Assembly (NCBI GenBank): GCA_016867095.1 | Contig: VGKK01000002.1 | Span: forward strand, 1 to 38,128 | Direction: 5' to 3' | Length of the DNA stretch: 38,128 bases | Origin: Candidatus Omnitrophota bacterium | GTDB taxonomy: Bacteria > Omnitrophota > Gorgyraeia > Gygaellales > Profunditerraquicolaceae | Part shown: positions 3,950 through 22,637 of the stretch, in pieces | Position numbering within the stretch: position 1 is the stretch's first letter | Layout: the number at the start of each line of letters is the position of its first letter | Notes under the pieces: model-generated | Databases searched by the model: none | What the model was told of the DNA's origin: nothing | What the model saw: only the letters and a program-made list of their open reading frames with translations | Made by a program: the position numbers and the translations under genes

Positions 3950-5266
3950 ATGACCTACCCAGAAACTATTAAATACCTAGAATCTTTTATTAACTACGAA
4001 AAGATTCCCGCCTACCCTTATAAAGAGTCCTTAAAATTAGAGCGCGTCAAGGGGTTCCTGGCCGCGATAGGCAACCCCCAGGATAGCCTGAAGTGCATTC
4101 ATATTGCCGGCACCAAAGGCAAAGGCTCAACCTGCGCCTTTCTTACCTATATATTGCGCCAAGCCGGCTTTAAGGTAGGGTTATACACTTCCCCGCATTT
4201 GTCGGATTTCCGCGAGAGAATCCGTATATTAAGTCACAAGTCACAAGTCACAAGTCACAAGTTAAGTAGAGAATTTGAAGGGATGATCTCACAAAAGGAG
4301 ATTAGTGATTTAGTCGCCAGATTAAGGCCGGCGATAGAGGATTACAACAGAAATTCCAAATACGAGAGGCTTTCTTTTTTTGAGGTTTATACTGCCCTGG
4401 CCTTTGTTTATTTTAAAGAAAAAAAAGTGGATTTCGCGGTTTTAGAGACCGGTTTAGGCGGGAGGCTGGATGCGACTAATGTGGTAAATCCTTTAGTCGC
4501 GGTAATCACGCCCATCAGTTATGAGCACACACAGAAACTGGGCAATACCTTAAAAGAAATCGCCCAGGAAAAGGCAGGAATCATTAAGCCGCAAGTCCCG
4601 ATAGTTATTAGCGCTCCGCAGGAAAAAGAGGCTGGTAAGGTCATCCGGCAGAGGTGCAAAGACGCCGGAGCCAAATTATACGAAATAAAGCAAAATAAAT
4701 ATCCCCGTTTTAAAATAAAACTGCTGGGAGAGCATCAACAGATTAATGCTAATGTAGCTGCGCAGGCGGCCAGGGCCTTGGGTTCTTGCGGGATTAAAAT
4801 TAGTGAAAAGACAATTCAAAAAGGCCTCTGTCAGACGGTTTGGCCAGGACGCCTGGAAATAGTTGCCAGAGAGCCTTTGGTAGTTTTAGATGGCGCGCAA
4901 AATGTAGCCTCGGCAGTTGCTTTAAAAAAAGCAGTCCAGGATAATTTCAAATATAAGGAATTAATTTTGGTTTTGGGAATTTCCAGCGATAAAGATATTA
5001 AGGGAGTTTGCCGGCAATTATGCCCTTTGGCAGATAAGATTATTTTGACGCGAGCGAATAATCCGCGGGCAACAAAGGTGGATGAGCTTGAGAAAATTAT
5101 TAAGTCACAAACTAGGTGTCAGGTGCCACAGATTATTATGACCGAAAATGCGAGAGAGGCAATGAATAAGGCCAGGGGTATAGCTCATAAGGAAGATTTA
5201 GTATTAGTAACGGGGTCATTGTTTGTAGTAGGCGAGGCGCGCAAATTGCTAAAAAAACTTGACTGA
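3950..5266 (+). CDS. folC: Folylpolyglutamate synthase / dihydrofolate synthase
   Basis: 438 aa with the Mur-ligase P-loop HIAGTKGKGST, plus TSPHL..F.ERIRI and LDGAQN motifs. Confidence 0.9.
   Translation: MTYPETIKYLESFINYEKIPAYPYKESLKLERVKGFLAAIGNPQDSLKCIHIAGTKGKGSTCAFLTYILRQAGFKVGLYTSPHLSDFRERIRILSHKSQVTSHKLSREFEGMISQKEISDLVARLRPAIEDYNRNSKYERLSFFEVYTALAFVYFKEKKVDFAVLETGLGGRLDATNVVNPLVAVITPISYEHTQKLGNTLKEIAQEKAGIIKPQVPIVISAPQEKEAGKVIRQRCKDAGAKLYEIKQNKYPRFKIKLLGEHQQINANVAAQAARALGSCGIKISEKTIQKGLCQTVWPGRLEIVAREPLVVLDGAQNVASAVALKKAVQDNFKYKELILVLGISSDKDIKGVCRQLCPLADKIILTRANNPRATKVDELEKIIKSQTRCQVPQIIMTENAREAMNKARGIAHKEDLVLVTGSLFVVGEARKLLKKLD
4231..4262 (+). repeat. Tandem 7-mer (aagtcac) x4.5 inside the folC reading frame
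   Basis: aagtcac aagtcac aagtcac aagtcac aagt, translated as SHKSQVTSHK. It lies within an apparent extra segment after the conserved ERIRI motif. Confidence 0.9.
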
Positions 5267-5438: not shown

Positions 5439-7418
5439 ATGAAAAGTAGAATTATTGGCATATTAGGCGAAGACGGAGTTATCTCGCGGGCGCTTAGCGG
5501 TTATGAGTCAAGGCCGGAACAGATCAAAATGGCCGAAGCAGTGTGCGAGGCAATTGAATGTGGAAAACATCTCTTAGTCGAGGCAGGTACCGGCATCGGG
5601 AAAAGTCTGGCGTATCTGGTGCCTTTTATAATTCATGCGGTAGAAGGCGAAAAGAAAATAGTTATATCAACCAACACAAAAACACTTCAACAGCAATTAT
5701 GTCAGAAGGATTTGCCGTTTCTAAAAAGATCTCTGGGGATAGAGTTTGATTTTACCTTATGCCTGGGCAGCGAGAATTATCTCTGCAAGAGGCGGCTTAA
5801 CAGCAGTTTTACTTATGATCTCTTTGAAACCGATGCGCAAGCCGAAGACTTAAAGAAAATCATGGCATGGTCAGAGCGTGCAGAAAGGGGTATTAAGTCA
5901 GATTTAGAATTCGTTCCGAGAGGCGGGGTTTGGGATAATGTATGCAGGGATCCGGATTTATGCATTGGTAATAAGTGCCATTATAATAACGGCTGCTTTT
6001 ACAGGAAGGCAAAAAGCGCGCAGAAGAATGCGCACGTTCTTATTGTGAACCATTCGCTTTTCTTTACGAATTTATCCGCAGGCGGCCAGGTTCTTCCGCA
6101 GTTTGACGCCGTAGTTTTTGATGAGGCCCATACGCTGGAAGAGGCCGCGGCAGGGTGTCTCGGTTATGAAGTCAGCAATACCCAGGTAAAATACCTGCTT
6201 GATTCGATATATAACTCTAAGACGAAAAGAGGCTTATTGTCTAAGTTCAAGCGGGCGAAGCATCAGATAGGCGTCATACAGCATAGATTGGAAGAGGCAA
6301 GGACCGCTGCTATGCAATTTTTTAACGCTGTTTCTGAGAAATTTGGCAGTCAAAGCGATGTTAAGAGGATACGAACTGCGAATATCATTTATAACTATTT
6401 AGACGAACCGCTAAAAGGGTTGACGGAAGCCATAAAAGGCTTAATTGATTGCGTTAATAAGCAAGAAGATGAGGTTTTGTTAAGGTTCTATGTCAAAAGA
6501 TGCATCGGCCTGAGGGCATCGCTTGAATTTATATTGAGTCTTGAGGAGAAGGCGGATTACGTTTACTGGGTTGAAGTGGCAGCGCGCCGCCGCGGCATAA
6601 AATACTCACTTTTGGCAAGCCCTATAGAGATAGCCGAAGAGCTGGATAATCAGCTATTCAGTATCATTAAGCCGGTAGTTTTAACTTCCGCCACGCTCGC
6701 TGTTAATAATAATTTCAGTTTCATAAGAAAACGCCTGGGTATAAAGGACTGCATAGAAGCGCTGTTGAATTCGCCTTTTGATTATAAAAAGAACGTCACT
6801 CTATATTTGCCGAGGAATATAGCCGATCCCGGCAACGATCAGGAATTGTTTCTCCAACAGGCGCTGGAGCATATCAAGCGGATAATAGATGTTATGGGAG
6901 GTAGGACATTTATCCTCTTTACCAGCTTTCGGATGCTGAATTTTATAAGCAAAGAATTGAAGAGTAACTATAAAGATATTCTTCTTCTGCGGCAAGGCGA
7001 GCGTCCCCGTTACACTCTCCTTGAAGAGTTTAAGAAAAATTCTAACGCTGTTTTACTTGGGACTAACAGCTTCTGGCAGGGCGTAGACGTTCCAGGCAGG
7101 GCGCTTGAGTGCGTGGTGATAGCTAAGTTACCGTTTTTAGTGCCGGATGATCCGATTACAGAAGCCAGGACGGAGTTAATAGAGTCGCGTAATGGCAATC
7201 CTTTTACGGAATATCAGATCCCCCAGGCAATAATGATGTTCAAGCAGGGCTTCGGCAGATTGATAAGGAACAAGACCGATAGAGGAGTAGTAGCGGTTCT
7301 TGATCCAAGGATTTCAACAAAATATTACGGTAAATCTTTCATAAATGCCATACCGGAATGCGGGCATATTTATGATATTAACGATATTAAGGAATTTTTC
7401 AAAGCAGCCTGCCCGTGA
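5439..7418 (+). CDS. dinG: DinG/XPD-family ATP-dependent DNA helicase (Fe-S type)
   Basis: 659 aa with Walker A AGTGIGKS, a DEAH box (VVFDEAHTLEE), and a 4-Cys cluster region (CLGSENYLCKRR ... CRDPDLCIGNKCHYNNGC). The C-terminal helicase motifs are GTNSFWQGVD and QGFGRLIR. Confidence 0.85.
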   Translation: MKSRIIGILGEDGVISRALSGYESRPEQIKMAEAVCEAIECGKHLLVEAGTGIGKSLAYLVPFIIHAVEGEKKIVISTNTKTLQQQLCQKDLPFLKRSLGIEFDFTLCLGSENYLCKRRLNSSFTYDLFETDAQAEDLKKIMAWSERAERGIKSDLEFVPRGGVWDNVCRDPDLCIGNKCHYNNGCFYRKAKSAQKNAHVLIVNHSLFFTNLSAGGQVLPQFDAVVFDEAHTLEEAAAGCLGYEVSNTQVKYLLDSIYNSKTKRGLLSKFKRAKHQIGVIQHRLEEARTAAMQFFNAVSEKFGSQSDVKRIRTANIIYNYLDEPLKGLTEAIKGLIDCVNKQEDEVLLRFYVKRCIGLRASLEFILSLEEKADYVYWVEVAARRRGIKYSLLASPIEIAEELDNQLFSIIKPVVLTSATLAVNNNFSFIRKRLGIKDCIEALLNSPFDYKKNVTLYLPRNIADPGNDQELFLQQALEHIKRIIDVMGGRTFILFTSFRMLNFISKELKSNYKDILLLRQGERPRYTLLEEFKKNSNAVLLGTNSFWQGVDVPGRALECVVIAKLPFLVPDDPITEARTELIESRNGNPFTEYQIPQAIMMFKQGFGRLIRNKTDRGVVAVLDPRISTKYYGKSFINAIPECGHIYDINDIKEFFKAACP

Positions 7419-7430
7419 GCAATAGAATAA

Positions 7431-7478
7431 CTCTTGCCAAGTGTTGGTTGAAATTCCGGCCGGCGGAGGTTTTTGTGT
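7431..7478 (+). terminator. Probable terminator downstream of dinG
   Basis: ctcttgcc..ttgg / ccgg..ggcggagg forms an imperfect stem followed by tttttgtgtttt. The 3' half (ggccggcggaggtttttgtgtttt) is nearly the same as in the folC terminator. Confidence 0.4.
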
Positions 7479-7497
7479 TTTATGGGGAGAATTCGGA

Positions 7498-7526
7498 TTG
7501 ACTTCGACCTGCAATAGGGTTAAAAT
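7498..7526 (+). promoter_or_regulatory. Sigma70-like promoter upstream of mod
   Basis: TTGACT (7498-7503), a 17-nt spacer, then TAAAAT (7521-7526), about 38 nt upstream of the mod ATG. Confidence 0.35.
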
Positions 7527-7563
7527 CTCTAAGGGCTGTAAAGAAAGAAGATGAGGAAAATTA

Positions 7564-9669
7564 ATGAAATTGACGGATAATGAAATAAGAAACATTACAA
7601 AATATCTGGAATCGGGAAAACCGCTTCCTGATCAGTATCGTTTCCTGCTTTTTGAGGAAAAACGCGAGGTAGAGCTGGTTTGGAACGGCAAGACCAGTGA
7701 AGTCTGCAACGCGATATTGCCGTTCCAGGTGATTGAGCAGGTTGATGAGCCGCGCAAGGAGAAAACGCAGGCCGAGTGGCAGGGGACGTTATTTGACACA
7801 AGCGGACGCCAGATCAAGGGTTGGACAAATAAGCTTATCTGGGGTGATAACAAATTGATCTTGAGCAGTCTTAAGAACGGGCCTCTGCACGATGAGATAG
7901 AAAAAGATGGCGGAATAAAGTTGATCTATATTGATCCGCCGTTTGACGTCGGCACAGATTTTTCCATGAATATTGAAATCGGCGATGAGCAATTTACCAA
8001 AGCGCCATCAGTGTTGGAAGAGATCGCATATCGGGATACCTGGGGAAAGGGCGCGGATAGTTTTATCGCCATGATTTATGAGCGGCTAACGCTGATGCGG
8101 GATTTATTGGCGCAAGATGGAAGTATTTATGTGCATTGCGATTATAGAGTTGATTCTTATATTCGGTGTATTCTAGATGAACTATTTGGTAAGCCAAATT
8201 TAAGAAATGAAATTATTTGGTGTTATACGGCTCCGTCAAATGTGTCCGGAAATTATCCGCGTAAACACGACGTTATTTATTTCTATTCGAAAAGCTCTAA
8301 GGTTACTTTAAATTTAGATGACATTAGAATTCCTTATTCTGCAGAAAGTCTTAGTCGTGCAAATCGGAATGTGATTAAGAAAGGCGGAACAATATTTGAT
8401 GACGTTAAATTAAATGATAAAGGGAAGGTGCCAGAAGATTGGTGGGCAGATGTTAATCCGGCATCTCGTTATCCGACAGAACATTTAGGTTATGATACCC
8501 AGAAATCCGAAAAACTTCTAGAACGGATTATTAAAGCTTCTTCAAACGAAGGAGATATTGTAGCCGATTTCTTTTGCGGCTCCGGGACAACTATGGCAGT
8601 GGCCGAGAAGTTAGGGCGAAAATGGATCGGCGCTGACCTTGGCAAGTTTGCCATTCATACGACGCGCAAGCGGATGATTTCGGTTCAGCGCGAGCTTAAA
8701 GAAGCAGGCAAGGATTACCGCGCGTTTGAGATCTTAAACCTCGGGAAATATGAACGCCAGCATTATATCGGCGTAAACCCGAATTTGCGGGACAAGGAAA
8801 AAGAGAAACAACTTGCCAAGCGTGAGAAGGAGTTCCTTGAGCTTATTCTTCGGGCTTACCGTGCTGAGAAAGCTGAAGGATTCAAAACGCTGCACGGAAA
8901 GAAATCCGGCCGAATGGTTGCGGTCGGGCCGATCAATTTACCGGTAACGAAAGATTTTGTTGATGCTGTTATAAACGAATGCATAGAAAAGAAGATTACA
9001 AAAGCAGATATACTGGCTTTTGAATTCGCGATGAGTGTTATTTCTACCGAGAAGACCAGAGAAAATAGGGTAATTCAAGAAGAAGCCAAGTCAAAAGGTA
9101 TTGACCTTGCCCTGAAGTATATCCCCCGGGATGTCTTTGACAAGCGCGCAGTGGAGAAGAGCCAGGTTGTTTTTCACGATGTGTCTTATATTGAGGTTAA
9201 GCCGATCGTTCAAAAGAAAGGCGCGGCCGTTGAGCTGGTAGATTTCAGCGTTTATTACAATCAGGATACCATCGCTAATGTTGAGGCATCGCTTAAGAAC
9301 GGCGGGACCAAGATTTATGTTGAGAACGGCAAGATCATCAAAGTTACCAAAGATGAGAAGGGAATTATAAAGCGAGAAGCCTTGACTAAGAAATGGACGG
9401 ACTGGATTGATTACTGGGCAATTGATTTTGATTTTGAAAGCAAAAAAGAAATTGTCCGGGTCAAGAAAGATAACGGCTCGGTTGAAGAAGCCTGGACCGG
9501 CGACTATGTTTTTGAGAACGAATGGCAGTCTTTCCGCACCAAGAAAGACCGGACAATCGAGCTCAAAAGCGCATTCCATGAATGCCCCAAAGGCCGCCGC
9601 AAAATCGCGGTTAAAGTGGTGGATATATTCGGGAATGATACAATGAAAGTGATTGAGGTCAATATATAG
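7564..9669 (+). CDS. mod: Type III restriction-modification DNA methyltransferase (Mod, beta-class N6A/N4C)
   Basis: 701 aa. Motif IV IYIDPPFDVG lies upstream of motif I FFCGSGTTMAVAEKLGRKWIGADL (order IV-TRD-I). The N-terminus is LLFEEKREVELVWNGK...LPFQVIE. The gene sits in an operon with a res helicase-nuclease. Confidence 0.9.
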   Translation: MKLTDNEIRNITKYLESGKPLPDQYRFLLFEEKREVELVWNGKTSEVCNAILPFQVIEQVDEPRKEKTQAEWQGTLFDTSGRQIKGWTNKLIWGDNKLILSSLKNGPLHDEIEKDGGIKLIYIDPPFDVGTDFSMNIEIGDEQFTKAPSVLEEIAYRDTWGKGADSFIAMIYERLTLMRDLLAQDGSIYVHCDYRVDSYIRCILDELFGKPNLRNEIIWCYTAPSNVSGNYPRKHDVIYFYSKSSKVTLNLDDIRIPYSAESLSRANRNVIKKGGTIFDDVKLNDKGKVPEDWWADVNPASRYPTEHLGYDTQKSEKLLERIIKASSNEGDIVADFFCGSGTTMAVAEKLGRKWIGADLGKFAIHTTRKRMISVQRELKEAGKDYRAFEILNLGKYERQHYIGVNPNLRDKEKEKQLAKREKEFLELILRAYRAEKAEGFKTLHGKKSGRMVAVGPINLPVTKDFVDAVINECIEKKITKADILAFEFAMSVISTEKTRENRVIQEEAKSKGIDLALKYIPRDVFDKRAVEKSQVVFHDVSYIEVKPIVQKKGAAVELVDFSVYYNQDTIANVEASLKNGGTKIYVENGKIIKVTKDEKGIIKREALTKKWTDWIDYWAIDFDFESKKEIVRVKKDNGSVEEAWTGDYVFENEWQSFRTKKDRTIELKSAFHECPKGRRKIAVKVVDIFGNDTMKVIEVNI

Positions 9670-9673
9670 TTTT

Positions 9674-9727
9674 TCTATAGGGAATATATGAGAAAATCGC
9701 CGCATCTATAGAAAATATATGAAAAAT
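9674..9727. repeat. Two ~23-bp direct repeats in the mod-ATPase spacer
   Basis: tctatagggaatatatgagaaaat (9674-9697) and tctatagaaaatatatgaaaaat (9705-9727). They end 12 nt before the ATG at 9740. Confidence 0.7.
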
Positions 9728-9739
9728 AGGGGGTGATAT

Positions 9740-11254
9740 ATGAAAAAGAGTTCTTATGGAAAAAATTTGTTCGGACTTCATTTGAGCCAGGAATTGGAAG
9801 ATTTCCTTAGAGATACAAACCCTTGGTGGAGTGGTAAACCTATGCGGCGGCTTCCGGAATTCCGCCGCTGGCTATTTGATCACACTTTACAACGCTTAAA
9901 AACAGGGCTTGCCCCTGTGATCGTTTTGCGCGGCCCGCGTCAGGTGGGCAAGACAACATTACAAGAGCAGATCATTCTTCATTTATTAAGCCAAGAAAAT
10001 GTTGATCCTAAAAATATTTTTCGCGTTCAATTTGACGAGATCCCTTCCCTGAAAGGATTAAAAGACCCTATTTTAAGCATATGCCGCTGGTATCAGGAAA
10101 GGATTTTAGGAGAAACATTTAATGAATCAATAAATAAAAACCGGCCGGTCTATATTTTTTTTGATGAAGTGCAGAATTTGACGGATTGGTCTCCTCAGAT
10201 TAAATCGTTAGTCGATCTGCATTCCGTAAGAATTCTTTTAACCGGGAGCTCGGCGCTGCGAATCGAACAGGGGCGGGACAGCCTTGCAGGCAGGATCACA
10301 ACTTTAGAGCTTGGAACGCTTCTGTTAAGGGAAATCGCGGAATTGCAAAATTTCGAGAAAATTGTCCCTATGATTGTGTTAAATGGATTAAAGGAATTGA
10401 CACAGAAAGATTTTTGGGCGGATGTTCGGACAAACGGCGAGAAATACAAAGAAGTGCGTGATAAAGCATTCAATCTATTTTCTGAACGGGGAGGTTACCC
10501 GGTTGCCCAAGTGCGGATAGACAGGCCATGGGGAGAAGTTTCCGATCAGCTCAATGAAACAGTTATAAAACGCGTTATTCAACATGATTTGAGGATCGGG
10601 GAGCGGGGAAGGAAGCGGGACCAGGATTTACTAGAAGAGCTTTTTCGTTTATGCTGCAGGTATATCGGTCAAGCTCCCGCACAGGCCATGTTTATTACAG
10701 AACTGCGCAAGCCTTTATCCGCTAACGTGGGCTGGAACAGGGTCTTGGCCTATTTAAGATTTCTCAATAATACGCTGTTGATTAGATTGATAGATCCGCT
10801 TGAAATTAGAATTAAAAAAAGGAAAGGCCGCCCGAAAATTTGTCTTTGTGACCATGCATTGCGCGCAAGCTGGCTGCAGGAGTTAATCCCGTTTTCTCCG
10901 CAAGGATTAGCTTCTGCCCCGCATTTAAGCGATCTGGCCGGGCATATTGCGGAAAGCGTGCTTGGATATTTTTTGGCAGGCATTCCCAATCTTGACGTGG
11001 CTTGGTTTCCAGAGCGCGCCGATGAGCCCGAAGTCGATTATGTCGTTTCTGTCGGAGAATTTAGGATTCCTATTGAAGTGAAATACCGAAGACACATTGA
11101 TTCTCATAGGGATACCATAGGACTGCGCTCATTTATAGAAAAAACTGTTTATAATGCTCCTTTCGGCATATTGGTCACTTTAAATGACGATACGATTATC
11201 GATGATCCAAGAATTGTCACCGTGCCTTTGTCGTCATTTTTGCTTCTTCGGTAA
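9740..11254 (+). CDS. AAA+ ATPase of the COG1373 type (AAA_14 plus a DUF4143-like C-terminal PD-(D/E)xK-like domain), embedded between mod and res
   Basis: 504 aa with an NPWW motif, Walker A GPRQVGKTT, Walker B IFFDEVQN, and a C-terminal EVDYVV...IPIEVK (D...ExK) pattern. Confidence 0.8.
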   Translation: MKKSSYGKNLFGLHLSQELEDFLRDTNPWWSGKPMRRLPEFRRWLFDHTLQRLKTGLAPVIVLRGPRQVGKTTLQEQIILHLLSQENVDPKNIFRVQFDEIPSLKGLKDPILSICRWYQERILGETFNESINKNRPVYIFFDEVQNLTDWSPQIKSLVDLHSVRILLTGSSALRIEQGRDSLAGRITTLELGTLLLREIAELQNFEKIVPMIVLNGLKELTQKDFWADVRTNGEKYKEVRDKAFNLFSERGGYPVAQVRIDRPWGEVSDQLNETVIKRVIQHDLRIGERGRKRDQDLLEELFRLCCRYIGQAPAQAMFITELRKPLSANVGWNRVLAYLRFLNNTLLIRLIDPLEIRIKKRKGRPKICLCDHALRASWLQELIPFSPQGLASAPHLSDLAGHIAESVLGYFLAGIPNLDVAWFPERADEPEVDYVVSVGEFRIPIEVKYRRHIDSHRDTIGLRSFIEKTVYNAPFGILVTLNDDTIIDDPRIVTVPLSSFLLLR

Positions 11255-11263
11255 AAACAGTTT

Positions 11264-13939
11264 ATGGCCATACATCCAAAATTACCTAAGTCACCTTACG
11301 AAATAATTAAACCTGAATTACGCTGGTTCCCGGCTGATGAGATGCTGCGGGAAAAGGGCTACGATAAGCTTCTGCCGCCTTTAGTCGCTAAACTACGCAA
11401 GCTGGTTGAGGCATGGCGAAACTCTGGTTATGACGGCGCAAGCGCCACGAGCAAGGCGCTTCTCAATTGGTGGTTTAAGACCGACCACCCCAAGTATAAC
11501 GCGGATGGCGAAGAGTATCTTTTTCAATATTATTTTGCTCAACGAGAATCGGTGGAAACGATTATTTATCTTTATGAAGTCGCCAGGATCGAAGATAAAT
11601 ATGACCTCCTGCGGTTTGACAGCTCCGGGATCTTGACGCCGGGAATGTTTGCGGAAGACTGGCGCCGGTTTGTGATCAAAATGGCCACGGGCAGCGGAAA
11701 AACAAAGGTCCTTAGCCTTGTTTTAGCCTGGAGCTATTTCCATAAAATGTATGAGACCGATTCTATGTTAGCGAGGAATTTTCTTGTTATTACACCCAAT
11801 ATTATCGTGTTAGACCGTATCAAAGCGGATTTTGACGGTTTGAAGATATTCTTTGATGATCCCGTGGTGCCGGAGAATGGTTATGCCGGGCAGAACTGGA
11901 AAGATGATTTTCAGGTTACGCTCCATATTCAGGACGAGATCGGAACCATTGGAAAAACAGGCAATATTTTTCTTTCTAATATCCACCGTGTTTATGAGAG
12001 CGGCGATGTTACGCCCTCTTTTGATGATGTGGATACGTCGGATTACTTTCTCGGTAAAAAACCGGTCGGCGCGACAAATGAATCAAAGATCGATCTTTCC
12101 GAGATCGTGCGAAATGTTGATGAGCTGGTTGTATTAAATGACGAAGCGCACCATATTCACGATGAAAAACTCGCCTGGTTTAAATCTATAGAGGATATTC
12201 ATAACCGCCTAAAGATGAAAGGTTCTGAGCTGTCGCTCCAGGTGGATGTAACCGCCACACCGCGGCACAATAACGGCGGTATATTTGTCCAGACGGTTTC
12301 CGATTACCCGCTTGTTGAAGCGATCCATCAGGATGTTGTGAAACACCCTCTTGTTCCGGATTCGGCCAGCCGGGCTAAGCTGGTTGAAAAGAAGAGCTCA
12401 AAATATACCGAGAAATATGAGGATTATATTCATCTTGGTTACCTTGAATGGAAAAAAGTCCATGAAGAGCATTCAAAACTTGGCAAGAAAGCCGTCCTAT
12501 TTATTATGACCGATGATACGCGTAATTGTGATGAGGTCGCGGCATACCTGGAGGGAAGATACCCGGAATTTAAAGAGGCGGTTTTGATTATTCATACCAA
12601 AAATAACGGCGATATCGCAGAGAGCGTAACCGGTAAAAAGAAAGAAGAACTGGATGTTTTGCGCGAAGCGGCCAATAAAATCGACCGGCCGGATAATCCG
12701 TATAAGGTTATAGTTTCGGTTCTAATGCTGAAAGAAGGCTGGGATGTCCGCAATGTAACGACAATTGTCGGGCTTCGGCCTTATTCGTCGGCAAGCAATA
12801 TTTTGCCTGAGCAGACCATGGGGCGGGGTTTGCGCCGGATGTATCGCGACGCAAATCTTCAGGAAATGGTCAGCGTTGTCGGGACGGATGCTTTTATGGA
12901 TTTTGTAGAATCGGTAAAAAGTGAAGGCGTTGAACTTGAACATCGCAAAATGGGCGAAGGAAGTGCCCCTAAGGCGCCGCTTGTTGTTGAGGTCGATAAA
13001 GAAAATTTGAAGAAAGATATTGAGAAGCTCGATATTCAAATTCCTGTATTAACCGCTCGTATTTATCGCGAATATAAGAATCTTTCTATTCTCAACGTGA
13101 GCGATTTTGGCCATGCAAAGGTTAAAGTCCGGCAATTTTCCGAAGAAGAAAAACGCGAGATCGTTTTTAAAGATATCGCATCCGATGAAATATCTCATAA
13201 AACCGAGCTGGATTCTGATTTTACAGCGAATTATCAAAGTGTGGTCGGATATTTTACTCAGGTCATTATGAAAGACCTGAGGTTGGTGGGCGGGTATGAT
13301 ATCCTCTATGGCAAGGTAAAAGAATTTATCCAGAATTATCTCTTTGAGAATGTCGTAAATTTAGAAGATCTGAACATTCTTAGGAATTTGTCCGAGCTCG
13401 AAGCCACCAAAACCATAATCGAAACTTTTAAGCGAAAGATTAACGATCTTACCGTTCTGGACAAGGGGGAAGCAGAGATCAAGGATTACATAAAAATAAG
13501 CCAATGCCGCCCCTTTGTAGTTAAAGAGCAGGGTTATCTTATGCCTCAAAAGAGCGCGTTTAATAAGATAGTGGGGGACAGCCATTTTGAACTTGAGGTA
13601 GCAGCTTTCTTGGAGAAATGCGATGATATTATTTCATATGCGAAAAATTATTTTTCTGTCCACTTCAAGATAGATTACCGTGATGCCGATGGTGAGATAA
13701 AAGATTATTATCCGGACTTCTTCGTAAAATTCTCGCAGAATGATCTCTATATTGTTGAAACAAAGGGCCGTGAAGACCTAGGTGATCCTCTTAAAATCGC
13801 CCGCCTCAAACAATGGTGCGAAGACGTGAATAGAGCGCAAAGCGATGTAAAATGCCGCTGTCTTTATATCAAACAAGAGCAGTTTGATAAATATAAGCCG
13901 CAAAATTTCTCGGAAGTAATAAAGAATTTCGCGCCATAA
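11264..13939 (+). CDS. res: Type III restriction enzyme Res subunit (SF2 helicase plus C-terminal PD-(D/E)xK nuclease)
   Basis: 891 aa with Walker A MATGSGKT, a DEAH box (LNDEAHHI), and helicase motifs LKEGWDV and QTMGRGLR. The C-terminus has YYPDFFV...YIVETKG. It starts 9 nt after the ATPase gene. Confidence 0.9.
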   Translation: MAIHPKLPKSPYEIIKPELRWFPADEMLREKGYDKLLPPLVAKLRKLVEAWRNSGYDGASATSKALLNWWFKTDHPKYNADGEEYLFQYYFAQRESVETIIYLYEVARIEDKYDLLRFDSSGILTPGMFAEDWRRFVIKMATGSGKTKVLSLVLAWSYFHKMYETDSMLARNFLVITPNIIVLDRIKADFDGLKIFFDDPVVPENGYAGQNWKDDFQVTLHIQDEIGTIGKTGNIFLSNIHRVYESGDVTPSFDDVDTSDYFLGKKPVGATNESKIDLSEIVRNVDELVVLNDEAHHIHDEKLAWFKSIEDIHNRLKMKGSELSLQVDVTATPRHNNGGIFVQTVSDYPLVEAIHQDVVKHPLVPDSASRAKLVEKKSSKYTEKYEDYIHLGYLEWKKVHEEHSKLGKKAVLFIMTDDTRNCDEVAAYLEGRYPEFKEAVLIIHTKNNGDIAESVTGKKKEELDVLREAANKIDRPDNPYKVIVSVLMLKEGWDVRNVTTIVGLRPYSSASNILPEQTMGRGLRRMYRDANLQEMVSVVGTDAFMDFVESVKSEGVELEHRKMGEGSAPKAPLVVEVDKENLKKDIEKLDIQIPVLTARIYREYKNLSILNVSDFGHAKVKVRQFSEEEKREIVFKDIASDEISHKTELDSDFTANYQSVVGYFTQVIMKDLRLVGGYDILYGKVKEFIQNYLFENVVNLEDLNILRNLSELEATKTIIETFKRKINDLTVLDKGEAEIKDYIKISQCRPFVVKEQGYLMPQKSAFNKIVGDSHFELEVAAFLEKCDDIISYAKNYFSVHFKIDYRDADGEIKDYYPDFFVKFSQNDLYIVETKGREDLGDPLKIARLKQWCEDVNRAQSDVKCRCLYIKQEQFDKYKPQNFSEVIKNFAP

Positions 13940-14031
13940 CAGACAAGCCCTAACCCGCATTGTCAAGGTGCCTTTTTTAGGGTGCCTTTTTAGTTTTAGA
14001 AAACTAGGTACATTTTAATGAAAGAAATACT

Positions 14032-15483
14032 ATGCAAAATATAAATTTAACCGATACTATTGCCGCTGTGGCCACCGCCGTCGGAGAATCCGGCATCGGG
14101 ATCGTGCGGATAAGCGGCAAGGACGCCTTAAGGGTAGCGGATAAGATTTTTCTTTCTAAGGACGGCAAGAGGGCTTCTACTTTTAAGGCTTATACCACGC
14201 ATTATGGATGGATTGTTAGTCGGTTATCCGGTAAGCCGGTAAGCCGGTTAGCCAGTTTAAGCCGGCACACCGGCACACCGGCACACCGGCACACCGAAAT
14301 AATTGATGAAGTTCTCTTGACGGTGATGCGCGGCCCAAAAAGTTATACCAAAGAAGACGTTGTGGAAATCAACTGCCACGGAGGCATTGTGGCTTTGCGG
14401 GCGGCCTTGGATTTAGTTTTGGAAAACGGCTGCCGCCTGGCTGAGCCGGGTGAATTTACCAGGCGCGCCTTCTTAAACGGCAGAATTGACCTGGCGCAGG
14501 CCGAGGCAGTCCTGGATATTATTCGCGCCAGGACTGATTCAGCGTTAAAAATAAGCGCGGAGCAGTTAAGGGGAGGTGTATCTAAGCAGATTAATAAAAT
14601 GAGGAACCGCCTCTTGGAATTAGCTTCGCACTTAGAGGCAGATATTGATTTTCCCGGCGAGGAGCTTGATGCTGCCGGGCCTCAGCAGATTAGGGAAGGT
14701 TTGCAAGAAGTAGGCCGCCAATGCCGGGATATCCTGGAGGGGGCCAGGCGCGGCCGGATATTCCGCGAGGGCATACAGGTAGTAATCTGCGGCAAGCCCA
14801 ATGTAGGAAAATCCTCGCTGTTAAACGCGCTTTTAAAACAGGAGCGCTCTATCGTTACGCCGGTAGCCGGAACTACCCGCGATACCATTGAGGAGGTTAT
14901 TGATATTAAGGGTATCCCGGTCAGGATTGTGGATACCGCCGGGATCATTGAGCCCAGGGATTTGGTGGAAAAAAAGGCGGTCTTGCGGTCCAAAAGATAC
15001 ATAGGTTTAGCCGACCTGGTAATCCTTCTATTGGATGGGAGTAGGCCACTGGCCAAAGACGATGAAGCCCTGGCCAGAAAATTAAAAAAGAAGGCCATTA
15101 TCGCCGTGGTCAATAAAATAGACTTAAAACAAAAGATTGATAAAGGCAAAATTTTAAAAAGATTCCCGAGCGTAGTGGGAATTTCAGCCAAAAAACTAAA
15201 AAACATTGATTTATTGGAGCAGGCAATCGCTAATTTAGTCTATGCCGGAGGGCTCAGGACCCCCGAATCGGCATTAGTCAGCAACCTGCGCCATATTGAG
15301 GCGGTCAGGCACGCAGAAAAATTTATTGCGCAAGCCCTAAATTCATTAGATAATGAATTATCTTTAGAATTCATCGCCCAGGAGATAAGGGAAGCCCTGG
15401 GTTATTTGGATGAGATATTGGGCAGGAGGTTTTCGGAAGAACTGCTGGATAAAATCTTCAGCGAGTTTTGCGTAGGCAAATAG
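14032..15483 (+). CDS. mnmE: tRNA modification GTPase MnmE (TrmE)
   Basis: 483 aa. The N-terminus is [22 protein letters not shown], followed by [24 protein letters not shown]. The G domain has [13 protein letters not shown] and NKID. The terminal CVGK matches the MnmE C(I/V)GK motif. Confidence 0.95.
14221..14296 (+). repeat. Two adjacent 8-bp tandem arrays inside the mnmE reading frame
   Basis: cggttatc cggtaagc cggtaagc cggttagc (14221-14252), a 10-nt linker, then cggcacac x4 (14263-14294). The translation is [25 protein letters not shown]. Confidence 0.9.
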
Positions 15484-15492
15484 ATCTATCAG

Positions 15493-15534
15493 CTCAAGAC
15501 CCGGTCTTGAGACGGTTGGCAAGACCGGGTCTTG
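15493..15534. repeat. Twin short palindromes in the mnmE-folE spacer
   Basis: ctcaagac-ccg-gtcttgag (15493-15511) and caagac-cgg-gtcttg (15520-15534). No T-tract follows either one. Confidence 0.6.
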
Positions 15535-15548
15535 GAGGTAGGGAGGGA

Positions 15549-17093
15549 ATGGATAAGAAAAAAATTGAAAAGGCAATCAGGGAGCTGCTCGGGGCTATCG
15601 GCGATGACCCCGGGCGTAAAGACCTGCAGGCAACCCCCCGGCGCGTGGCAGAGATGTATGAAGAGATATTTTCCGGCCTGCGCCAGGACCCGCGCAAGGA
15701 ATTAGAGGTTATTTTAGACCAGAAACACGACGAAATAATTTTATTAAAGGGCATTCCCCTGTATAGTTGCTGTGAGCACCATCTTTTACCGTTTATCGGT
15801 AAGGCGCACATCGCCTATATTCCTAAAAACGGCCGCGTCACCGGCTTAAGTAAGCTCGCCCGGGTGGTGGATATTTTAGCCAAGCGGCCGCAAATCCAGG
15901 AAAGATTAACCACGCAGATTGCCGAGATTATTATGTCCAAACTTAAACCGCAGGGTTGTATGGTGGTTATTGAAGCAGAACATATGTGTTATGATGATAA
16001 AACAGAAGTTTTAACGGCTGACGGTTGGAAATTATTTCAGAATCTAAAAGAGAGCGATAAAATAGCCCAAGTAGATTCGGTAACGAGAAACCTATCATTT
16101 ATAACACCAAAAAATCCCTTTTCATATAACTATAATGGTATGATGGTAGCAATTAAAAGCTTATCCGTAGATTTGTTAGTTACACCGGACCACAGGATTT
16201 ACTATTCTTCCGAATGGGATTTTTATAATGGCCATAATAATTGGCAGATATCCCAAGCCCAGGAATTAATGAAAAGATATATAATCATTCCAAGGGCATG
16301 TAATTGGATAGGCAGTAATCCTGGAAAAATACGAATTGGGAAATATACTATAGATTTTGAATATTTTGTGCAAATTTTTGGAATTTGGGTTAGCGAAGGA
16401 TGTACAACGCAGATAGATAAGAATAGAAGAAAGTTTGTAGTTGTTACTCAGAGTCCAAAATCAAAATATTTCCTAGATATTAAGAAACTATTTAGCAAAT
16501 TGAAAGTCAAATATATTCAGTGTAAGTCCGGAAAGGCAGTTCAATTCAGGATAGAGGATGACGATTTTTTTAATTATTTTAGACAATTTGGCAAGTCCGG
16601 AGATAAATACATACCCGACGTTATTAAAAATTCGACTCAGAAGTTTTTGAGGTTATTTTTAAGTTGGTATATAAAAGGCGACGGGCATATCAAAAAAAAT
16701 AAGGCAATACATTTTGTTTCTAAATCGCAGAGACTCATGGATGATTTGCAAGAAGTTTGTATTAAGCTAGGCATAGGTTGCACAAAGCAGAACAATAAAA
16801 ATTATTTCAGAATGGAGACTCACAGAACAAAATCTGGCAAAGATAAATGGTATTCAAGGTTGAGGCCTTGTAATTTTTCACTCAGAGAATATAAAGGAAA
16901 AGTCTTTTGCGTATCTGTGCCTAAAGGGCTAATTTTAGTAAGACGGAATGGAAAGGTAGCGATATCTGGAAATTGTATGTCTATGCGGGGGGTAAAAAAA
17001 CCGGGGACACTGACCATCACTTCGGCGGTAAGAGGGGTATTTAAGAAAAACGAGAAGACCCGCGCCGAGGCCCTGACCTTGATTAAGTCGTAA
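15549..17093 (+). CDS. folE: GTP cyclohydrolase I (FolE) precursor interrupted by an intein
   Basis: ATG at 15549 is preceded by ggaggtagggaggga. The exteins read [14 protein letters not shown]...[23 protein letters not shown]...MVVIEAEHM | [24 protein letters not shown].... Joined, they total 185 aa, which is normal FolE length. Confidence 0.9.
15987..16973 (+). mobile_element. Intein (329 aa) with a LAGLIDADG homing-endonuclease domain
   Basis: Block A is [14 protein letters not shown] (Cys1) and block B is VTPDH. The two dodecapeptide motifs are [13 protein letters not shown] and [15 protein letters not shown]. The C-terminus is VFCVSVP...[14 protein letters not shown] followed by a +1 Cys. 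GC falls to ~27% (16/60 at 16081-16140) versus 58% (35/60 at 15841-15900) in the N-extein. Confidence 0.85.
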
Positions 17094-21296: not shown

Positions 21297-21438
21297 TAGC
21301 AGATGGCGCTTAGATCTCTCTATCCAAGCTCCGGTATTGTATTGCTTCTGACAAATGCTCCGAACTAACTTCTTAACTGTTTCCTTAATCTTTAATGAAT
21401 AAACTGTTGGCATTTGGGTATTACCAAGAAAATTCTTA

Positions 21439-21466
21439 TTGCAATATTACTTTTTCGTGGTATACT
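21439..21466 (+). promoter_or_regulatory. Candidate promoter for the second AAA+ ATPase gene (would give a near-leaderless mRNA)
   Basis: TTGCAA (21439-21444), a 16-nt spacer ending in TGg, then TATACT (21461-21466). The ATG at 21474 is only 7 nt downstream. Confidence 0.3.
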
Positions 21467-21473
21467 TTTATCA

Positions 21474-22637
21474 ATGATTAAACGCATTGATTTATATAAG
21501 AAAATACGGTTTGCATTTCGTTATGGGCGTATCGTCGCTCTATTAGGTCCTCGCCAGTGCGGAAAAACAACCCTCGCGCGCCAATTTATTTCCCCTGATT
21601 CCACGCATTATTTCGATCTTGAAGACCCTGTCGGTGCAGCGAAGCTTGCGGAACCCATGAATGTTTTATCTAAACTCAAAGGGGCAGTTGTCATTGACGA
21701 GATTCAACGTCAACCCAGTTTATTCCCTATTCTGCGCGTTCTTGCTGACCGTAAGCCTCTGCGGGCAAGATTCCTTATTTTGGGTAGCGCCTCTCCGGAA
21801 TTGATTAAACATTCTTCAGAATCTCTGGCGGGAAGACTAGCCCGCGTTACTATGGCAGGATTTACTCTTTCTGAAGTAGGATTATCGGTTTCCAGTCGGC
21901 TTTGGCTTCGCGGCGGTTTCCCTCGTTCATTCTTAGCAAAAACAGAAAAAGACAGCGTCAGCTGGAGGAAAGATTTTATCCAGAGTTTTGTAGAAAGGGA
22001 TCTGCCTGCGTACGGCATGACGCTACCGCCTCTTACGTTATCAAGGCTTTGGGTTATGGTAGCTCATTATCACGGACAACTTTTAAATTCAAGCGAAATA
22101 GCACGCTCTTTAGGAATCAATGAACTCACAGTAAAAAGATACTTGGATGTTTTAAGTGGTGTTTTCATGCTCAGGCAATTACAGCCTTGGCATGTGAATA
22201 TCAAGAAACGCCAGGTAAAGGCACCTAAGATTTATATCCGCGATACGGGTATTCTCCATAGCCTATTAGGCATACGTACTATGGATGACCTATTAGCCAA
22301 TCCAAAATATGGCGCATCATGGGAGGGATATGTTATTGAGCAAATCATCAATTTTGTTGAACCCGATGAGGTTTATTTCTGGGCCACACATAACGGCGCA
22401 GAGATTGATCTGGTATTTTCGAAAGGCGGGCGAATGTATGGCGTTGAATGCAAGCGAGCTGATGCTCCGCTTATGACGCCCTCTATGAGGATAGCGCTTA
22501 AGGACTTAAAACTGGCACGTATCGCCGTAATCTACCCAGGCAAACAGCGATATTTACTGCATAAGCAAATTGAAGTTGTGCCGTTTGAAGCGGTAGTTGA
22601 TGGCTTTAGCGGAATATTCCCCAAAACTACACGTTGA
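21474..22637 (+). CDS. AAA+ ATPase, COG1373 type (AAA_14 plus DUF4143-like), paralog of 9740-11254
   Basis: Walker A GPRQCGKTT, Walker B VVIDEIQR, and a C-terminal EIDLVF...YGVECK (D...ExK) pattern. The ATG at 21474 is preferred over the TTG at 21414. Confidence 0.8.
   Translation: MIKRIDLYKKIRFAFRYGRIVALLGPRQCGKTTLARQFISPDSTHYFDLEDPVGAAKLAEPMNVLSKLKGAVVIDEIQRQPSLFPILRVLADRKPLRARFLILGSASPELIKHSSESLAGRLARVTMAGFTLSEVGLSVSSRLWLRGGFPRSFLAKTEKDSVSWRKDFIQSFVERDLPAYGMTLPPLTLSRLWVMVAHYHGQLLNSSEIARSLGINELTVKRYLDVLSGVFMLRQLQPWHVNIKKRQVKAPKIYIRDTGILHSLLGIRTMDDLLANPKYGASWEGYVIEQIINFVEPDEVYFWATHNGAEIDLVFSKGGRMYGVECKRADAPLMTPSMRIALKDLKLARIAVIYPGKQRYLLHKQIEVVPFEAVVDGFSGIFPKTTR

Follow-up and report, generated by a model that had tools for sequence, protein, structure and literature searches.

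The endonuclease-bearing inteins of solved structure, namely TliVMA and PhoVMA (7qsu, 7qss, 7qst), PI-PfuI (1dq3), PI-PkoII (2cw7) and yeast PI-SceI (1vde), share one plan, in which a Hint splicing domain is split by a two-motif LAGLIDADG endonuclease. The inteins catalogued so far are concentrated in proteins of replication, repair and nucleotide metabolism (PMC4760082). We describe an element that appears to follow the same plan within folE, the gene for GTP cyclohydrolase I, on a 38,128-nucleotide stretch from Candidatus Omnitrophota bacterium (assembly GCA_016867095.1, contig VGKK01000002.1, positions 1 to 38,128 of the forward strand); that whole stretch is called the window below. Judging from its sequence and a predicted structure, the insert at 15987-16973 is very probably a mobile class 1-type intein, in frame in folE, that would first splice and then home.

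FolE is the first enzyme in folate and queuosine synthesis. The type IA enzyme has a Cys2His-OH zinc site in which C179 is a ligand, and its apoprotein is inactive (PMC11672702). A preliminary description of the window, made from its letters, had placed a LAGLIDADG intein at the active-site cysteine of this enzyme and supposed that the insertion site might be new. Literature on inteins together with GTP cyclohydrolase or FolE yielded nothing relevant, co-mentions being to unrelated genes, and the main text of the survey by Novikova et al. 2016 (its supplement and InBase lay outside our coverage) mentions neither cyclohydrolase nor folate. Within the literature covered we could not find FolE described as an intein host, and in that sense the site is apparently new. 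The sequences themselves are public, with about 100 clusters that carry the intein already in databases and two fragments annotated by JGI as "LAGLIDADG-like domain" and "intein/homing endonuclease".

Results

A reading frame on the + strand runs uninterrupted through 15468..17093. Within it, an ATG at 15549, preceded by a GGAGG/GGGAGGG ribosome-binding site, opens a gene of 514 codons plus a stop (15549..17093, + strand) that comprises N-extein, intein and C-extein, and FolE homologues share the identical 12-residue N-terminus. The encoded precursor of 514 amino acids (aa) matched Pfam GTP_cyclohydroI with E = 3.6e-71, split over two stretches, and NCBIfam TIGR00063 (folE) with 223 bits against a cut-off of 181.6. 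Excision of 15987-16973 (329 aa) left a 185-aa product that covered GTP_cyclohydroI positions 1-178/179 in a single stretch (E = 1.9e-76) and exceeded the curated cut-offs of TIGR00063 (240.7 bits vs. 181.6) and NF006826 (286 bits vs. 162). The NCBIfam FolE models thus matched the precursor as two pieces and the spliced form as a whole. When the spliced protein was aligned with structures 4uqf (Listeria, 3.8e-73), 1wm9 (Thermus thermophilus) and 1fb1 (human), there was no gap at the junction. The excision that the preliminary description had proposed therefore restores a FolE collinear with both the Pfam model and solved structures, as the structural alignment that it had suggested confirms. 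By its curated scores and its Cys-His-Cys zinc ligands, the host protein is, at the level of sequence, GTP cyclohydrolase IA.

The insertion splits an HMC motif, with the active-site His on one side and the zinc-ligand Cys on the other. The N-extein (15549..15986, + strand, 146 aa) holds the zinc ligands Cys75 and His78 within CEHH as well as the active-site His145, and it ends in EAEHM. The C-extein (16974..17093, + strand, 39 aa plus stop) opens with the TGT codon at 16974-16976, which encodes the +1 Cys, C147 of spliced FolE; the +1 residue was Cys in every FolE host scored. In the gap-free alignment, C147 stands opposite T. thermophilus C179 and human Cys212, and Cys75 and His78 stand opposite residues 108/111 of the T. 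thermophilus enzyme and 141/144 of the human one. The E. coli equivalents we take to be Cys110, His113 and Cys181, the last of which Auerbach et al. in 2000 reportedly assigned to the same position. The earlier claim that the +1 Cys is a zinc ligand holds, since the C179 with which it aligns is a named ligand of the enzyme (PMC11672702).

The intein itself (15987..16973, + strand) runs from Cys1 to Asn329, as delimited by its translation, by junctions common to its homologues and by an AlphaFold model. As first described, it starts with Cys, ends in VAISGN and is followed by the TGT Cys, with TPDH (residues 66-69) and two dodecapeptide motifs (residues 130-139 and 224-235) at the positions given for them. 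The Hint N-terminal part (residues 1-112, 15987..16322, + strand) includes block A at 15987-16028 and block B, LLVTPDHR, at 16173-16196. The LAGLIDADG endonuclease domain (residues 113-292, 16323..16862, + strand) carries motif 1 at 16374-16403, with E137, and motif 2 at 16656-16691, with D232. The Hint C-terminal part (residues 293-329, 16863..16973, + strand) contains blocks F and G at 16899-16973, with Cys308 (F:4), Ser327 (G:5), Gly328 and Asn329. These domain limits are our reading of the secondary structure of the model.

Profile and structure comparisons pointed to the same assignment. Pfam LAGLIDADG_3 matched the intein with E = 8.8e-9 (35.9 bits, cut-off 22.5), and NCBIfam models of intein-containing RpoA'', RNR, DnaB and GyrA matched the insert through their own intein segments. 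PI-PkoII was the sole match of a single-sequence PDB search (3.5e-4). A profile built from ten family members gave stronger matches, reaching PI-PkoII at 1.8e-11 and the TliVMA intein at 2.2e-7, and, over residues 6-76, it also picked up the AceL NrdHF intein in its N-terminal Hint half (E = 2.9e-6). The AlphaFold2 model, based on 70 aligned relatives, had a pLDDT (predicted local distance difference test) of 97.1 and a pTM (predicted template modeling score) of 0.94. Its top 16 PDB matches in Foldseek were all endonuclease-bearing inteins (TliVMA, PI-PfuI, PI-SceI, PhoVMA and PI-PkoII), with probability 1.00, E from 7e-15 to 1.5e-9 and query TM-scores of 0.58-0.71; each of the five had at least one structure at E = 2e-11 or better, and these best structures had query TM-scores of 0.60-0.71. 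The next match, over the central domain, was the free-standing LAGLIDADG enzyme I-DmoI (target TM-score 0.64-0.70, root-mean-square deviation ~3 Å).

Within that central domain, the endonuclease motifs IFGIWVSE137G and WYIKGD232G fall on model helices 124-137 and 218-232, each followed by strands. G138, G231, D232 and G233 were invariant in the family alignments, and E137 was at least 90% conserved. On sequence and model, the insert is a Hint splicing domain around a single-chain, two-motif LAGLIDADG endonuclease. The identification made in the preliminary description is thus supported by sequence profiles, by the predicted fold and by the homologous FolE clusters with intein described next.

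A protein search with the intein alone recovered 197 clusters (90% identity level, E ≤ 0.001). Approximately the first 100 were FolE proteins, 494-559 aa long, that have the intein at the identical H[LM]-C junction, ending in (S/C/I)GN before that Cys, and their source labels included Omnitrophica, Ktedonobacterales and "Thermoplasmatales archaeon". In reference genomes, one per GTDB species, we found 28 FolE-host loci in five phyla. Omnitrophota carriers, some of them filed under Planctomycetes-type names, had inteins 63-71% identical to that of the window. The other carriers belonged to Margulisiibacteriota, Chloroflexota (Anaerolineae and Ktedonobacteria), Actinomycetota, including the cultured Rubrobacter taiwanensis strain Yellowstone (L028), and Aquificota (Hydrogenothermaceae, Persephonella). 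In host proteins other than FolE, the wider clade occupied at least 528 reference-genome loci, many of them in DPANN archaea and candidate-phyla bacteria; viral contigs (IMG/VR; L085-L164 listed) contained at least 536 loci. None of the best 80 viral loci was a FolE with the window-type intein. At 50% identity, there were 538 clade representatives at E ≤ 1e-30, a number that rose to 10,547 at E ≤ 1e-3.

Some further observations concern individual relatives. Loci L029-L080 show the clade pattern (CY[DS]xxTE[IV]LT ... [SC]GN) in many hosts from DPANN, candidate-phyla and Omnitrophota genomes. Two of the clade junctions, recognized by eye alone, were PurD-like (GPN before the insert, TGGMG after it) and NrdD-like (TG before, SIGVVTxNLPR after). 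One NCBI protein labeled "Thermoplasmatales archaeon" (P0019, on a 1.07-Mb contig) has an intein 67% identical to that of the window and an extein that looks Omnitrophota-like by eye; its archaeal label could reflect either a mislabeled bin or a cross-domain transfer.

Residues expected to act in splicing were well kept at the N-terminal side. Cys1, Thr and His of block B, the terminal Asn and the +1 Cys are all present, and the ~100 FolE homologues with the intein at this site keep them. All 10 sequences of an intein-only alignment have Cys1, as do at least 90% of 70 relatives. The block B Thr-x-x-His residues T66, P67 and H69 were invariant or at least 90% conserved, with H69 invariant in the intein-only alignment. 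At the C-terminal side, in our reading of the standard intein blocks, Gly328 stands at G:6 in place of the usual His and Cys308 at F:4 in place of the usual Asp, and block F lacks its His. A sub-threshold HMMER fragment sets the family's "kvycvsvp" opposite "yvydlsve" of PI-PkoII. From an alignment of 160 clade members, we tallied blocks F and G in 159 relatives, of which 27 are FolE loci, 80 are viral and the other 52 are genomic. The terminal Asn was present in 155 of them and the penultimate Gly in 152, including all 27 FolE loci; at F:4, 136 have Cys, 13 have Ser and 10, viral members with the same SGN ending, have Asp.

The penultimate Gly in place of His that the preliminary description had pointed out is therefore present, but it is not peculiar to the window copy. 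From the aligned sequences, the Gly-Asn ending and the F:4 Cys are traits of a large, phage-rich intein clade and not decay, and we read the window intein as class 1, its blocks F and G being a variant specific to the clade. The F:4 Cys prompted us to consider class 3 membership, which we rejected. The class 3 signature is Trp at B:12, Cys at F:4 and Thr at G:5 (PMC7664689); here a variable Ile71 occupies B:12, Ser or Cys occupies G:5 and Cys1 never varies.

The intein is distributed sporadically among close relatives of its host. All of the 120 best-scoring matches of spliced FolE (82-90% identity, 184-194 aa, Omnitrophota where named) were intein-less. The nearest intein-carrying extein (P0011, 87.6% identity) ranked 21st by identity, behind 20 closer intein-less FolE relatives, and the 85%-identity extein cluster around the window contained 2 members with the intein and 100 without it. 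Rough parsimony required at least eight gains or losses, a count that is approximate because it rests on average-linkage clustering. Two loci among those 20 closer relatives, L082 and L084, keep the order purH-folC-mnmE-folE and have an uninterrupted 185-aa folE, which is an intact empty site; downstream of folE they carry a PKD-domain and/or PMT_2 gene, then type II secretion genes. The empty site of L084, GAAGCAGAGCATATG joined to TGTATGTCAATGCGGGG, differs from the joined exteins of the window, GAAGCAGAACATATG and TGTATGTCTATGCGGGG, at 2 of 32 flanking positions, both synonymous. Sporadic presence and absence at a conserved target is the pattern expected of a homing element, and it is the pattern found when these sequences are compared.

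Base composition gave a more qualified picture than the one first proposed. The guanine plus cytosine (GC) content was 48.9% in the N-extein, 50.8% in the C-extein, 33.2% in the intein and 45.7% in the whole window; at third codon positions, the exteins had 57% and 67% and the intein had 31%. The preliminary description had the direction of the GC drop right, but its fall from 58% to 27% across the junction was overstated, the measured one being from 49% to 33%. The 100 nucleotides on each side of the N-terminal junction had 43% and 35% GC, and the extremes among 200-nucleotide windows, 59% (15500-15699) and 30% (16300-16499), both lie well away from it. Nor is low GC, taken at first as a sign of acquisition, specific to the window copy, since it is constant in the Omnitrophota subfamily. 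Across phyla, intein GC tracked that of the host (Aquificota 26-30%, Chloroflexota 52-58%, Rubrobacter 64-67%), so the element has long been resident in each phylum. Within Omnitrophota, intein GC stayed at 31-35% while the host gene ranged from 37% to 59%. Such constancy would fit a spread from genome to genome within the phylum that outpaces the adjustment of base composition.

Selection on the intein was estimated as the ratio of the proportions of nonsynonymous and synonymous differences (pN/pS), because saturated synonymous sites (pS ~0.75) made dN/dS unusable; the rough estimates were 0.30 for Hint-N, 0.23 for the endonuclease, 0.22 for Hint-C and 0.22 for the extein. By this measure, all parts of the intein appear to be under purifying selection about as strong as that on the extein. 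The well-kept endonuclease domain argues for an active homing cycle rather than a decaying remnant.

FolE also hosts a second, unrelated intein family, absent from the window, directly before the zinc-ligand Cys of CEHH. We call that position site a and the HMC position of the window site b. Site-a inteins follow S[LMV], begin with C[VI][PA] and end in L-T-H-N before CEHH. A search returned 435 clusters (E ≤ 1e-5), of which the 120 listed (P0241-P0360) were all FolE and 118 had this junction. A Rubrobacter sp. metagenome-assembled genome (L019, JACCZN010000054.1, 1537-4128) encodes an 863-aa FolE with both inteins. FolE is thus a recurrent intein target at both zinc-ligand cysteines.

Several other features of the window were recorded. 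The 65-nucleotide spacer between mnmE (14032-15483) and folE contains a perfect 16-bp hairpin (CAAGACCCGGTCTTG...CAAGACCGGGTCTTG, 15494-15535) that abuts the folE ribosome-binding site. Its predicted energy is -32.9 kcal/mol (z = -4.5 vs. shuffles), and no T-tract follows it. A search for a riboswitch or folE motif (THF-II) upstream of folE found no Rfam match at gathering thresholds, and the E-value mode gave only chance-level microRNA matches on the hairpin. The N-terminal domain of MnmE has a low-complexity loop of 19 to 27 aa (~14218-14298), encoded by short tandem repeats (CCGGTAAG..., and GGCACACC three times); L082 has a loop of equal length and different sequence, and L084 has none.

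Between folC (3950-5266) and mnmE lies a block of ~8.5 kb (5439-13939) that is missing from the syntenic L082 and L084. It encodes a DinG-like helicase (5439-7418), a type III restriction-modification methylase (7564-9669), an AAA_14/DUF4143 ATPase (9740-11254) and a Res-type helicase/nuclease (11264-13939), and its sampled 3' end (13000-13999) has 36-42% GC. The block is probably an inserted defense island. A second AAA_14/DUF4143 ATPase gene of the window lies at 21414-22637. A YchF-like open reading frame at 1396-2097 is only 233 aa long, and the C-terminal YchF domain alone was recognized in it (residues 150-232); its N-terminus (MKICAFSIPEINIGKHNI...) has no P-loop. It encodes either a truncated or divergent YchF or a protein with a miscalled start.

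Discussion

From this anatomy we infer how the element would behave. Translation would yield the 514-aa precursor, which we presume to be inactive because the 37-kDa insert parts Cys147, the third zinc ligand, and the C-terminal 39 residues from Cys75, His78 and the rest of the protein. Such a precursor would not be able to assemble the Cys2His zinc site or, probably, the decamer. Splicing would begin with an N-to-S acyl shift at Cys1, aided by Thr66 and His69 of block B. The thioester would then be handed to the +1 Cys, Asn329 would cyclize to release the intein and an S-to-N shift would form the His-Met-Cys peptide bond. The products would be active 185-aa FolE and a free intein, the latter acting as a monomeric two-motif LAGLIDADG endonuclease that cuts intein-less folE around the junction of GAAGCAGARCATATG and TGTATGTC. 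Repair from an intein-carrying copy would spread the element, which is homing.

Several points weigh against this account and temper it. The penultimate His normally helps Asn cyclization and the F:4 Asp normally coordinates the steps; with both missing, splicing may proceed with other kinetics or even along a route that is not the textbook one. Compensatory changes can allow splicing in inteins that lack the conserved histidines (PMC7664689). Since such exceptions are documented, the atypical F:4 and G:6 residues lower the typicality of the element and not its membership among inteins. None of the Pfam Hint, Intein_splicing and Vint models matched the window intein significantly (best Vint, E = 0.16), so that, of the profile searches proposed in the preliminary description, the one for LAGLIDADG_3 was significant, and it is the family profile and the fold that support the Hint assignment. 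The closest relatives of the intein are only 70-74% identical, with no very recent transfer in evidence, and the flanking codons (TGT for the +1 Cys, ATG at -1) resemble those of the window's own lineage and not those of other intein-carrying alleles. The pN/pS values, as noted, are rough.

Besides being a parasite, the intein might serve as a conditional switch, with splicing delayed by Zn2+ bound across the splice site or, under oxidative stress, by a disulfide between Cys1 and the +1 Cys (or Cys308). The supply of folate and queuosine precursor would then be held back. This would add to the account above, and we consider it unlikely. Both splicing nucleophiles are cysteines, and the +1 Cys is a zinc ligand beside Cys75 and His78. 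All three cysteines concerned, Cys1, Cys308 (F:4) and the +1 Cys, are conserved, and both FolE intein families are placed exactly at the two zinc-ligand cysteines. In the P. abyssi PolII intein, a disulfide between Cys1 and the +1 Cys prevents splicing, and zinc serves as a suppressor of splicing (PMC5874633); metals are also reported to inhibit it (PMC8735848). However, inteins generally enter at a conserved catalytic Cys, Ser or Thr, and the requirement for the +1 residue, together with conserved DNA that offers a stable homing target, means that the position needs no regulatory explanation. Moreover, most close relatives are without the intein, which argues against a needed function. A further idea, which strikes us as distinctly improbable, is that the site-b intein, with its three conserved Cys and no catalytic His in blocks F and G, splices only when the extein zinc residues are unoccupied or reduced. 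FolE maturation would then be a post-translational sensor of zinc or redox state where folate and queuosine synthesis begins, possibly through a block F Cys pathway between class 1 and class 3.

The F:4 Cys raises the question of a class 3-like or hybrid route, in which Cys308, instead of or besides Cys1, attacks the N-terminal junction to form a branched thioester. Nearly all clade members have a nucleophile at F:4 (Cys or Ser), and the block F Cys is the nucleophile of class 3 inteins (PMC7664689). Yet the Trp-Cys-Thr signature is lacking, with I, F, M, V or C at B:12 and Ser or Cys at G:5, and the invariance of Cys1 also speaks against it. In addition, the ten viral members that combine F:4 Asp with the SGN ending make Cys and Asp seem interchangeable, which suggests that the Cys is not an obligate nucleophile. 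We regard this route as highly unlikely. That the insert is a decayed, splicing-defective remnant, leaving folE in effect a pseudogene and the cell to another GTP cyclohydrolase or salvage, is extremely unlikely: the intein does lack the penultimate His and the F:4 Asp, and our 38-kb view of the genome leaves room for a FolE2-type paralogue, but the frame stays open over its 514 codons, none of the nucleophiles and neither of the endonuclease acidic residues has been lost, pN/pS (0.22-0.30) is on par with the extein, the supposed defects are kept in 152 of 159 relatives in many host proteins and the exteins exceed curated FolE cut-offs.

With a mobile, splicing intein as the preferred reading, the list of intein hosts gains an obligate zinc enzyme at the folate/queuosine branch point. 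Metagenomes hold ~100 clusters at site b and up to 435 at site a (the 120 listed all FolE), annotated plainly as "GTP cyclohydrolase I FolE". For gene callers and metabolic reconstructions, a FolE of 510-560 aa is not aberrant, and length filters discard such proteins. The clade is also a large natural set with a Gly-Asn junction and an F:4 Cys, which serves the study of Asn cyclization without a penultimate His and intein engineering, and the cultured carrier R. taiwanensis makes experiments possible. The general understanding of inteins is unchanged, as this is a genuine but conventional selfish element with an atypical yet conserved catalytic set.

Site-a inteins have the same host protein as the window intein and a LAGLIDADG endonuclease, and they too sit directly before a zinc-ligand Cys that serves as the +1 nucleophile. 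They differ in forming a separate lineage, with a canonical His-Asn end and Ser at the position read as F:4 (TVYSFKC). Class 3 inteins, such as mycobacterial DnaB1 and Deinococcus Snf2, share the F:4 Cys with the window intein, which differs from them in having no B:12 Trp, no G:5 Thr and an invariant Cys1, and some of its close relatives have Asp at F:4. Inteins without the penultimate His reportedly include those of Methanocaldococcus jannaschii RpolA' (Gly) and PEP synthase (Phe) and of Chlamydomonas ClpP (Gly), which Chen, Benner and Perler in 2000 and Wang and Liu in 1997 are said to have covered. The Gly cases resemble the window intein in their Gly-Asn C-terminal junction, the difference being that in the window clade the Gly is near-constant over many host proteins.

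The inteins of solved structure remain the closest models. Like the window intein, they combine a Cys1 nucleophile and a terminal Asn with a conserved site in an essential enzyme, although sequence identity to them is only 10-15%. At 329 aa, the window intein is smaller than the solved structures (361-537 residues), and, from the secondary structure of the model, it has no obvious extra DNA-recognition region of the kind seen in PI-SceI. Where the alignment permits comparison, it has Gly at the penultimate position and Cys at F:4 instead of His and Asp (VYDLSVE in PI-PkoII). Its host is a folate/queuosine enzyme, whereas theirs are replication, ATPase or nucleotide-reductase proteins. Still, as far as sequence and model can place it, the window intein is ordinary in its architecture and its presumed mechanism, one more endonuclease-bearing intein like PI-PfuI, PI-PkoII and the VMA inteins.

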